Below are positions 583-2,223 of a stretch of DNA of 2,424 nt, in pieces. Made by a program: the position numbers and the translations under genes. The notes below the pieces were generated by a model. It did no database searches, was not told the DNA's origin, and saw only the letters and a list, made by a program, of their open reading frames with translations. The stretch lies in IMG/VR virus record IMGVR_UViG_2695420458_000022. One strand, 5' to 3'. This stretch comes from a virus (taxonomy: Duplodnaviria > Heunggongvirae > Uroviricota > Caudoviricetes). Each line of letters begins with the position of its first letter. The stretch's first letter is position 1.

Positions 583-804
583 ATGGCAGACATCATTGAT
601 TCAGCATCAGAAATTGAAGAATTACAGCGCAACACAGCAATAAAAATGCGCCGCCTGGACCACCAGGCTATATCTGCCACTCATTGTTGTGAGTGTGGCG
701 ATCCCATAGATGAGCGAAGACGCCTGGCCGTTCAGGGTTGTCGGACTTGTGCAAGTTGCCAGGAAGTTCTGGAGCTTATCAGTAAACAGAGAGGTTCGAA
801 GTGA
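583..804 (+). CDS. TraR/DksA-family C4-type zinc-finger protein (73 aa), phage-type RNA-polymerase secondary-channel regulator
   Basis: Translation contains C35-x2-C38-x17-C56-x2-C59, the exact Cx2Cx17Cx2C spacing of TraR/DksA C4 zinc fingers (nt 685-759), preceded by an acidic and amphipathic N-terminal helix region. Length matches the 73-aa TraR-like proteins of F plasmid and lambdoid phages. Stop TGA 802-804 overlaps the next start. Confidence 0.9.
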   Translation: MADIIDSASEIEELQRNTAIKMRRLDHQAISATHCCECGDPIDERRRLAVQGCRTCASCQEVLELISKQRGSK

Positions 805-1172
805 GCGAAATTAACTCTCAGGCACTGCGTGAAGCGGCAGAGCAGGCAATGCATGACAACTGGGGATTTGACGCGGACCTTTTCCATGAGCTGGTAACAC
901 CATCGATTGTGCTGGCACTGCTGGATGAACGGGAAAGAAACCAGCAATACATCAAACGCCGCGACAAGGAGAACGAGGATATTGCACTAACGGTAGGGAG
1001 GCTGCGCGTTGAGCTGGAAGGCAAACACAGGCGCATTACTGAGCTGACAATGTGGATTAAGCGACTGAGTTCCTCTCTCAAAAACGCAAAACCAGACAGC
1101 AAGTTGCCGGATGACGCAATGATCTGGCTAAATAATGAAGGGCTTACCAGTATAGAGGATATTTTACGATGA
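801..1172 (+). CDS. Coiled-coil phage protein (123 aa), possibly ead/Ea22-like family (assignment tentative)
   Basis: GTG start at 801 overlaps the TraR-like stop (GTGA), with Shine-Dalgarno GAGG at 791-794, 6 nt upstream. An in-frame ATG at 849 is an alternative start. Central heptad-like charged segment (ERERNQQYIKRRDKENEDIALTVGRLRVELEGKHRRITEL). Stop TGA 1170-1172 overlaps the next start. The antisense ORF 818-1102 is Ser-rich low complexity, typical of the opposite strand of a coiled-coil gene. Confidence 0.75.
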   Translation: MSEINSQALREAAEQAMHDNWGFDADLFHELVTPSIVLALLDERERNQQYIKRRDKENEDIALTVGRLRVELEGKHRRITELTMWIKRLSSSLKNAKPDSKLPDDAMIWLNNEGLTSIEDILR

Positions 1173-1816
1173 GCACTTTTACCATGGAATGGCTACAAAA
1201 TACGATTACCAGTATTGAGTCAGCACGAGATGAAATGCCATTCGGACTCGATAACGATCAAGCACACATGCTTACAGCATTTAAAATCGCTCTCGCCTCA
1301 CTGGAACGCGAGCGGGTTCGCCACGAGCATGCCAAATGGTCTGACTCCACATTTGGCTGCGTTGGCCCCATTGGTCCACTGAAACACCTCTCAAAAGAGG
1401 CTCTGGAAGCCGCAGCCGAACCTGACGATCTCAGCGAGTGGGCTGATATGCAGTTCCTGTTGTGGGATGCACAGCGCCGTGCCGGTATCAGTGATGCTGA
1501 AATTACCGCTGCTATGGAAAATAAATTGAAGATCAACATGGAGCGTCAGTGGCCTGAACCAAAAGATGGTGAGCCTCGTTTGCACATTAAAGAACCCGGC
1601 AACTCTCCGGTAACTCCGGATGGTTGGATAAGCTGTAGTGAGCTAATGCCAGATGATGGTCAGCACGTAATTATTTTATGTGATGGCGCATTCGTTCTTT
1701 ATGCGCAATATCGAGACGGAGAGTTTTTCGATATTGTCCGCAATGGTGATGAATTTTTCGAAACACAGAGTCGCAATGTAACCGACTGGATGCAACTACC
1801 AGAACCTCCTCTTTGA
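1169..1816 (+). CDS. Two-domain phage protein (215 aa): N-terminal MazG-like nucleotide pyrophosphohydrolase (DUF550-type, dATP/dGTP diphosphohydrolase-like) fused to C-terminal DUF551
   Basis: ATG 1169 overlaps the upstream stop (ATGA); Shine-Dalgarno AGAGGA at 1154-1159. N-terminal half has a MazG-like acidic helix signature (KEALEAAAEPDDLSEWADMQFLLWDAQRRAGISDAEITAAMENKLKINMERQW, about nt 1400-1552). C-terminal about 60 aa (WISCSELMPDDGQHVIILCDGAFVLYAQYRDGEFFDIVRNGDEFFETQSRNVTDWMQLPEPP, nt 1625-1813) matches the DUF551 pattern with the terminal W-M-x-LPEPP motif. A Pro-rich linker separates the domains. Ends with tandem stops TGA-TAG. Confidence 0.88.
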   Translation: MSTFTMEWLQNTITSIESARDEMPFGLDNDQAHMLTAFKIALASLERERVRHEHAKWSDSTFGCVGPIGPLKHLSKEALEAAAEPDDLSEWADMQFLLWDAQRRAGISDAEITAAMENKLKINMERQWPEPKDGEPRLHIKEPGNSPVTPDGWISCSELMPDDGQHVIILCDGAFVLYAQYRDGEFFDIVRNGDEFFETQSRNVTDWMQLPEPPL

Positions 1817-1912: not shown

Positions 1913-2092
1913 ATGTCTTGTCCAAAATGCGGTTCTGGAAATATTGCAAAAGAAAAAACAATGCGTGGATGGTCTGATGATTATGTGTGCTGCGATTGCG
2001 GATACAACGACTCTAAAGACGTATTTGGAGAGCGTGGTAAAAACGATTTTGTCAAAATTAATAAAGAACGCGAAGGCAACGAAAAAAGCTAA
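1913..2092 (+). CDS. Small Cys4 zinc-ribbon protein (59 aa) with a Lys/Glu-rich C-terminal tail; function unknown
   Basis: Strong Shine-Dalgarno GGAGG at 1901-1905, 7 nt before ATG 1913. Translation MSCPKCGSG...VCCDCGYN gives C3-x2-C6 ... C26-x2-C29, a classic zinc ribbon. The ORF track's 1880 start adds 11 residues with no ribosome-binding site. The overlapping alternative-frame ORF 1872-2111 lacks both RBS and motifs. Separated from the upstream operon by a 96-bp AT-rich spacer. Confidence 0.75.
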   Translation: MSCPKCGSGNIAKEKTMRGWSDDYVCCDCGYNDSKDVFGERGKNDFVKINKEREGNEKS

Positions 2093-2155: not shown

Positions 2156-2180
2156 AAGCCGCCTGATGGCGGTTTTTTCT
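2156..2180 (+). terminator. Rho-independent (intrinsic) terminator
   Basis: GC-rich stem CCGCC (2159-2163) / GGCGG (2168-2172) with 4-nt loop TGAT, extendable by a G-U and two A-U pairs, followed immediately by TTTTTTCT (2173-2180). Located 64 nt after the zinc-ribbon gene stop and 44 nt before the next start. Confidence 0.75.
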
Positions 2181-2223
2181 TGCCTGATTTGCAGGTTCGA
2201 TTCCCTATTCGGAGATAGCACTC

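Follow-up and report, generated by a model that had tools for sequence, protein, structure and literature searches.

An EaA-family gene of a lambdoid prophage: a probable MazZ-type purine (d)NTP pyrophosphohydrolase tethered to an acidic DUF551 domain

The gene at 1169-1816 of the window (the whole stretch of 2,424 nucleotides that was analysed) is an ordinary, catalogued accessory gene of lambdoid prophages. It belongs to the EaA family, which has been listed ever since the P22 genome was annotated, and its annotation was already known. We consider it highly probable that this gene encodes an intact purine (d)NTP pyrophosphohydrolase of the MazZ type, which is tethered by a linker to an acidic DUF551 domain. 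Its activity and oligomeric state, like its most likely substrate, (d)GTP and possibly also dATP, we infer by analogy with characterised relatives. The features of the locus are collected in Table 1.

Table 1. Features of the eaA locus and of its product (positions in the window)
Feature	Position	Strand	Description
Upstream Ead/Ea22-like gene	801..1172	+	123 aa; PF13935, E 2.4e-21; eaD position of the P22 order
Translation initiation region	1154..1172	+	AGAGGA, Shine-Dalgarno-like, 1154-1159, then ATG at 1169
EaA-family gene, complete	1169..1816	+	215 aa: N-terminal module, DUF550/MazZ-type NTP pyrophosphohydrolase, linker, DUF551
N-terminal module, aa 1-50	1169..1318	+	two helices, 6-22 and 29 onward
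DUF550 / PF04447 domain, aa 51-145	1319..1603	+	all-alpha; helices 29-62, 68-83, 88-104, 109-125
Predicted metal-binding residues	1397..1447	+	E77 (1397-1399), E80 (1406-1408), E90 (1436-1438), D93 (1445-1447)
Predicted nucleotide-pocket residues	1466..1585	+	D100, K119, N123, R126, W128, R137, H139
Interdomain linker, aa 131-151	1559..1621	+	contains 'NSPVTPDG'; AF2 pLDDT 46-55
DUF551 / PF04448 domain, aa 152-214	1622..1810	+	acidic, five-stranded beta domain
EaG homologue, downstream	1913..2092	+	59-aa zinc ribbon; RefSeq 'Eag protein'; phrog_2945, E 5e-30
Terminator-like GC-rich hairpin and T tract	2156..2185	+	closes the eaA-eaG block

Identity and family of the gene

An ATG-to-stop ORF coincides exactly with the interval of the gene on the + strand. 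The sequence-only reading had described its product as a MazG-like N-terminal half fused to DUF551 in the C-terminal 60 or so residues, and had proposed a profile-HMM search against Pfam as a check. This search was run with Pfam-A and matched both families strongly. PF04447 (DUF550) was found at aa 51-145 with an E-value of 4.5e-42; the score of 142.7 bits compares with a threshold of 23, and the alignment spans positions 2-96 of the 97 in the profile. PF04448 (DUF551) was found at aa 152-214 of 215 with an E-value of 1.5e-17 and a score of 64.6 bits, where the threshold is 22. Both matches are far beyond chance, and both halves of the description hold. In Pfam, the former DUF550 now carries the name 'dATP/dGTP pyrophosphohydrolase', and an identical protein is present in RefSeq (WP_000103027.1) as 'dATP/dGTP pyrophosphohydrolase domain-containing protein'. 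In the Pfam search, neither canonical MazG (PF03819) nor the MazG-like family PF12643 matched the protein at E <= 1; its kinship with canonical MazG is at the level of the superfamily, that is of the fold, only. NCBIfam offered no model for the protein. On the - strand, two ORFs run antisense to the gene, at 1258-1539 and at 1391-1585; neither has family support.

The architecture is very common. There are more than 8000 close relatives of the DUF550-DUF551 protein, and some 40% of the complete genomes of E. coli contain parts of the gene. P22 EaA (NP_059588.1, 317 aa) has two Pfam domains identical in kind and order, with 78% identity to our protein in the DUF550 core (BLASTP 3e-53) and 45% in DUF551 (2e-15). 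It is 102 aa longer, differs in its N-terminal part, has additional residues between the two domains, and carries another variant of the DUF551 core. On the function of P22 EaA the literature gives genome-annotation mentions only, and the papers on modelling of the exo-xis region and on ea22 do not mention an EaA enzyme.

When the DUF550 core was compared with that of P22 eaA, pN was 0.17 and pS was 0.90, with synonymous sites saturated. The core is thus under strong purifying selection. The region is highly mosaic and the ea genes of P22 are non-essential, and the domain might for these reasons be taken for a catalytically dead relic that survives as a structural scaffold or as recombination filler. 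We find this reading, which is already disfavoured, scarcely credible. Apart from the selection on the core, the ORF is intact, with the identical protein sequence (P0001) on 558 contigs, and none of the metal ligands varies, nor does the transition-state arginine, between clades whose identity is below 35%.

Fold and active site of the DUF550 domain

A first AF2 model, built from 51 near-identical enterobacterial sequences, had a pLDDT below 50 in the DUF550 core, and Foldseek matched it to no MazG structure. It was discarded for the enzyme domain and retained as an initial view of DUF551 only. The DUF550 domain has the all-alpha four-helix fold of the NTP-PPases (MazG/HisE). Searching the PDB with the single sequence gave a match to MazZ that was not significant (E 0.53). 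Only when the search used a profile built from 134 homologues of three clades did the match reach significance; 7ODY was then the sole PDB sequence match (E 9e-6).

The acidic motifs quoted in the sequence-only reading are real: K76-E77-A-L-E80 corresponds to codons 1394-1408 and E90-W-A-D93 to codons 1436-1447. The E-x2-E and E-x2-D residues, which it had singled out for mutation, are present as E77, E80, E90 and D93 and are invariant, together with R126, among the 134 homologues of the three clades (enterobacterial, Klebsiella-phage and actinophage). K119 and W128 are invariant as well, and conservation is 90% or higher at D100 and N123; including R137 and H139, every predicted metal and pocket position is either invariant or at least 90% conserved in these clades. 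The Klebsiella Webervirus gp20-like proteins, from lytic phages, share 55% identity in the DUF550 core and have all invariant residues, but no DUF551. Proteins like gp112 of the lytic Mycobacterium phage Kostya, also without DUF551, likewise keep all invariant residues at 35% identity; Kostya gp112 itself is the bare DUF550 domain of 105 aa and lies in a neighbourhood of DNA-replication genes.

Many of the all-alpha NTP-PPases that resemble the DUF550 model in structure are sanitising enzymes, namely RS21-C6/DCTPP1, Mtb MazG, iMazG and dimeric dUTPases. This speaks for a house-cleaning role, in which the enzyme would remove non-canonical or damaged purine dNTPs (e.g. 8-oxo-dGTP, dITP, 2-oxo-dATP) and spare the replicating phage genome mutation. 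Such a role would also fit the actinophages, where DUF550 genes adjoin DNA-polymerase exonuclease subunits. It would matter most after induction by oxidative stress; the available part of PMC4699033 describes H2O2 as a natural inducer of Stx prophages and reports an effect of the exo-xis region on induction. However, the closest characterised relatives are efficient on the canonical nucleotides dGTP, GTP and dATP, as far as the accessible portions of PMC12884076 and PMC8342488 go, and we regard house-cleaning as an unlikely, if still conceivable, function.

Comparison with characterised enzymes

The preferred reading, a purine (d)NTP pyrophosphohydrolase, draws mainly on S-2L MazZ (PDB 7ODY). 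Identity between MazZ and the DUF550 domain is only about 20-30%; what is visible of MazZ reaches 42.8 bits against PF04447, which is above threshold. E77, E80, E90 and D93 align to MazZ E35, E38, E50 and D53, which are conserved across the homologues of MazZ and coordinate three Mn2+ in 7ODY according to the part of PMC8342488 that is available. The same source describes S-2L MazZ as specific for (d)GTP. R126 aligns to the transition-state residue R83, D100 to D60, which reads the guanine N2, and K119, N123, W128, R137 and H139 to K76, N80, W85, R94 and H95. By analogy, the four acidic residues would hold two or three Mg2+ or Mn2+ ions, R126 would stabilise the transition state, D100 would contact the 2-amino group of the purine, and K119, N123, W128, R137 and H139 would close the pocket. 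Pyrophosphate, or two successive phosphates, would thereby be removed from a purine (d)NTP to yield the (d)NMP. As in S-2L MazZ, the enzyme may work as a dimer or tetramer with pockets formed by two chains. The five MazZ residues from K76 to H95 belong to the second chain, and that they have conserved counterparts in our protein, which was modelled as a monomer, is consistent with an oligomer.

There are also differences from MazZ. MazZ E34, which is not conserved among MazZ homologues, aligns to K76, and the places of MazZ K31 and N20 are taken by H73 and F62. Because of these last two replacements, base recognition may differ between the two proteins. MazZ is a stand-alone protein of 100 aa with neither the N-terminal module nor DUF551, and it is encoded in a datZ-mazZ-purZ cluster that makes 2-aminoadenine DNA, whereas our gene has no such neighbours: neither the window nor 14-22 kb of sequence context in two annotated prophages contained purZ or datZ (adenylosuccinate synthetase, HD phosphohydrolase). 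A Z-genome role was rejected on these grounds. The known rationale for MazZ is inapplicable here, because lambdoid phages have ordinary A-containing DNA and lack purZ and datZ.

The source of the Pfam and RefSeq name is gp40 of Acinetobacter phage SH-Ab 15497, a DUF5664-DUF550 protein. It has E-x2-E, E-x2-D, D, K, N, R and W at the aligned positions, but it matches PF04447 weakly and over part of the profile (positions 5-80; 33 bits), its N-terminal domain is PF18909, it has no DUF551, and its gene adjoins purZ and an HD phosphohydrolase. According to the accessible part of PMC12884076, this protein hydrolyses dGTP and dATP. The assay does not isolate the activity of DUF550, because PF18909/DUF5664 alone, taken from another phage, is in the same source itself a dNTP pyrophosphohydrolase. 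On the family profile, MazZ and the SH-Ab enzyme each score about 35 bits, and the BLASTP match of the latter covers only 42 residues. The Pfam name rests on these two distant characterised relatives, from which the substrate of EaA would have to be extrapolated; the initial caution that substrate and role are not legible from the sequence was well placed. For enterobacterial enzymes of the EaA clade, no assay was found in the literature.

Genomic neighbourhood and expression

The locus is the early-left (exo-xis) region of an E. coli prophage that is a mosaic of lambda, P22 and KplE1. Positions 1-1019 of the window are 96.7% identical to lambda DNA, a stretch that takes in roughly the first 73 codons of ea22, and positions 1777-2182 are 96.6% identical to P22 DNA covering the last 40 nt of the gene and eaG. 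The order eaD-like, eaA, eaG, upstream of xis/int, is that of P22, and in two annotated prophages the gene lies between exo/bet/gam and xis/int. The upstream ORF comprises an N-terminus and a coiled coil only and lacks the C-terminal domain of lambda Ea22. Because its stop codon overlaps the start of our gene (ATGA at 1169-1172), translational coupling of the two is suggested. The EaG homologue belongs to the same transcription unit, and it resembles a Lar-like zinc ribbon with a sub-threshold match. The hairpin behind it occupies the position of the P22 terminator that is annotated for the aI RNA. Rfam returned nothing above threshold in the window. A PADLOC match of the last ORF to 'mad1' was rejected, as it is explained by this ORF being TorI, an HTH protein of the AlpA/excisionase type.

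Judged by its position, the gene would be expressed early, from the leftward promoter, within the exo-xis block. This bears on the idea that the enzyme defends the prophage or excludes superinfecting phages by depleting dNTPs. Depletion of dNTPs is a known defence strategy and the gene is carried by many prophages, but the gene, lying behind gam/bet/exo in an early-left operon, should be repressed in the lysogen, and a promoter scan found no promoter-like site ahead of it. Furthermore, none of the defence families in PADLOC-DB matched the protein at E <= 0.1, and DUF550 is equally present in strictly virulent phages. A defence function is therefore very improbable.

The sequence-only reading had suggested that the enzyme counters nucleotide-based host responses, which is plausible. 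In one version of this, the substrate would be (p)ppGpp, or its GTP precursor, and the phage would lower the stringent-response signal early, biasing the decision between lysis and lysogeny or blunting abortive-infection toxins. The aspartate with which MazZ reads the guanine 2-amino group is retained in the pocket as D100, and a TraR/DksA homologue of the lambda Orf73 type is encoded two genes upstream. Members of this family act on RNA polymerase in place of ppGpp/DksA, as stated in the available part of PMC9239242, and genes of the exo-xis region are described, in sources available in part, as influencing lysogenisation and induction. The argument from the neighbourhood is circumstantial, however. 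According to the accessible part of a preprint (bioRxiv 10.1101/2022.06.09.495361), ppGpp is hydrolysed by Atd1, a MazG-like phage enzyme that confers protection from the toxicity of TIR-STING, but Atd1 may come from another MazG family than our protein. Moreover, the available portions of PMC12884076 and PMC8342488 report ppGpp activity for neither of the characterised PF04447 members. We thus think an alarmone substrate possible but unlikely.

N-terminal module, linker and DUF551

The first 50 residues lie outside both Pfam domains and end at a conserved joint, 'IALASLE'. They were modelled with a pLDDT of 81-93, had no Pfam match and matched just the N-termini of phrog_5117, phrog_660 and phrog_3323. 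In the relatives P0050, P0053, P0060 and P0104, other N-terminal modules are joined at IALASLE, and this part of the protein is a separate, exchangeable module. The linker of about 20 aa is flexible and disordered according to the model. It is the site of an optional insert of 55 aa in relatives, which in P0032, P0060 and P0067 is flanked by repeated PV(T/I)PDG.

DUF551 was modelled with a pLDDT of 82-93 and has strands at 166-171, 175-182, 185-192, 195-201 and 204-209. Its framework, W...MP at the start and W-M-P-L-P-x-P-P at the end, includes W153, P161, G184, W207, P211 and P214, each of which is at least 90% conserved among 145 DUF551 sequences. No PDB structure matched the model at E <= 1e-3; SH3/Tudor-like barrels appeared at E 0.1-1 only, and the resemblance to this fold is weak. 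The domain has a pI of 4.05, and DUF551 variants in general have a mean net charge of -6.9, with 98% of them negative. Conserved flanks surround a hypervariable core, and ω is about 0.5.

In nearly all of 150 representatives DUF551 is C-terminal, but its partners vary. DUF550 is found in only 6 of 145 DUF551 representatives, and Ead/Ea22 N-termini likewise occur in 6 of the 145. E. coli YfdS of CPS-53/KplE1 and the 'V2' variant of Ea22 from Stx phages have the same C-terminal DUF551 signature, but join it to a coiled coil or to an unknown region rather than to an enzyme; the C-terminal domains of Ea22 are likewise acidic and exchangeable (PMC10834534, PMC4776307). Unlike in Ea22 'V2', the Ea22-like N-terminus and DUF551 are here encoded by two separate, overlapping ORFs. 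A 370-aa protein with Ead/Ea22, DUF550 and DUF551 in one chain (P0065) was rejected as a natural three-domain fusion. It looks like the result of a lost stop codon, because it occurs on one contig only and keeps the internal 'MSTITKER' start.

DUF551 is thus a promiscuous C-terminal cassette that is attached to many unrelated N-terminal parts and is not specific to the DUF550 enzyme. Since there are many DUF550 enzymes without DUF551 (e.g. Sweeny gp20 and Kostya gp112) and DUF550 is missing from most DUF551 proteins, we infer that it is not part of the catalytic machinery but a protein-binding module, for targeting or as a decoy.

This evidence touches on an anti-defence function, in which the enzyme would destroy a nucleotide-derived immune molecule while DUF551 directs it to a host defence protein or decoys that protein. 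The molecule destroyed might, for instance, be a linear nucleotide signal or a nucleotide that acts as an antiviral chain terminator. The cassette-like diversification of DUF551 at constant acidic charge fits such a function, as do the hypervariable accessory region with its candidate counter-defence neighbours (the Lar-like EaG here; Ral and Gam, which are found upstream in related prophages) and the retention of DUF550 in hundreds of virulent Klebsiella phages. However, conserved flanks around a variable core also result from ordinary mosaic recombination among lambdoid phages, and PADLOC gave no match, although it models defence and not anti-defence. On balance an anti-defence role is doubtful. 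Equally speculative, and improbable in our view, is a combined reading in which DUF551 is a hypervariable acidic adaptor or decoy and EaA a targeted hydrolase of guanine nucleotides or (p)ppGpp, working with the TraR-like Orf73 against the stringent response or defence. In this reading, lambdoid and other phages would attach DUF551 to the C-terminal end of diverse early proteins, among them Ea22 coiled coils, RecT and Lar-like proteins as well as the MazZ-type enzyme. If it were true, DUF551 would direct early proteins to a host target or mimic one.

Implications

As the identical RefSeq protein already bears this name, the annotation of the gene adds nothing new. Its interest lies in its setting. 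Purine (d)NTP pyrophosphohydrolases of this type have so far been understood only within the pathway for 2-aminoadenine (Z-DNA), and yet thousands of enterobacterial phages with ordinary DNA, temperate as well as virulent, carry the well-conserved DUF550 enzyme. With the preferred reading, the likely effect would be an early adjustment of the guanine or purine nucleotide pool of the host during infection or induction. The exo-xis region, to which the gene belongs, has an influence on lysogeny and on how Shiga-toxin prophages are induced, and its genes are being characterised singly. DUF551, finally, emerges as a modular, acidic and fast-evolving C-terminal cassette.

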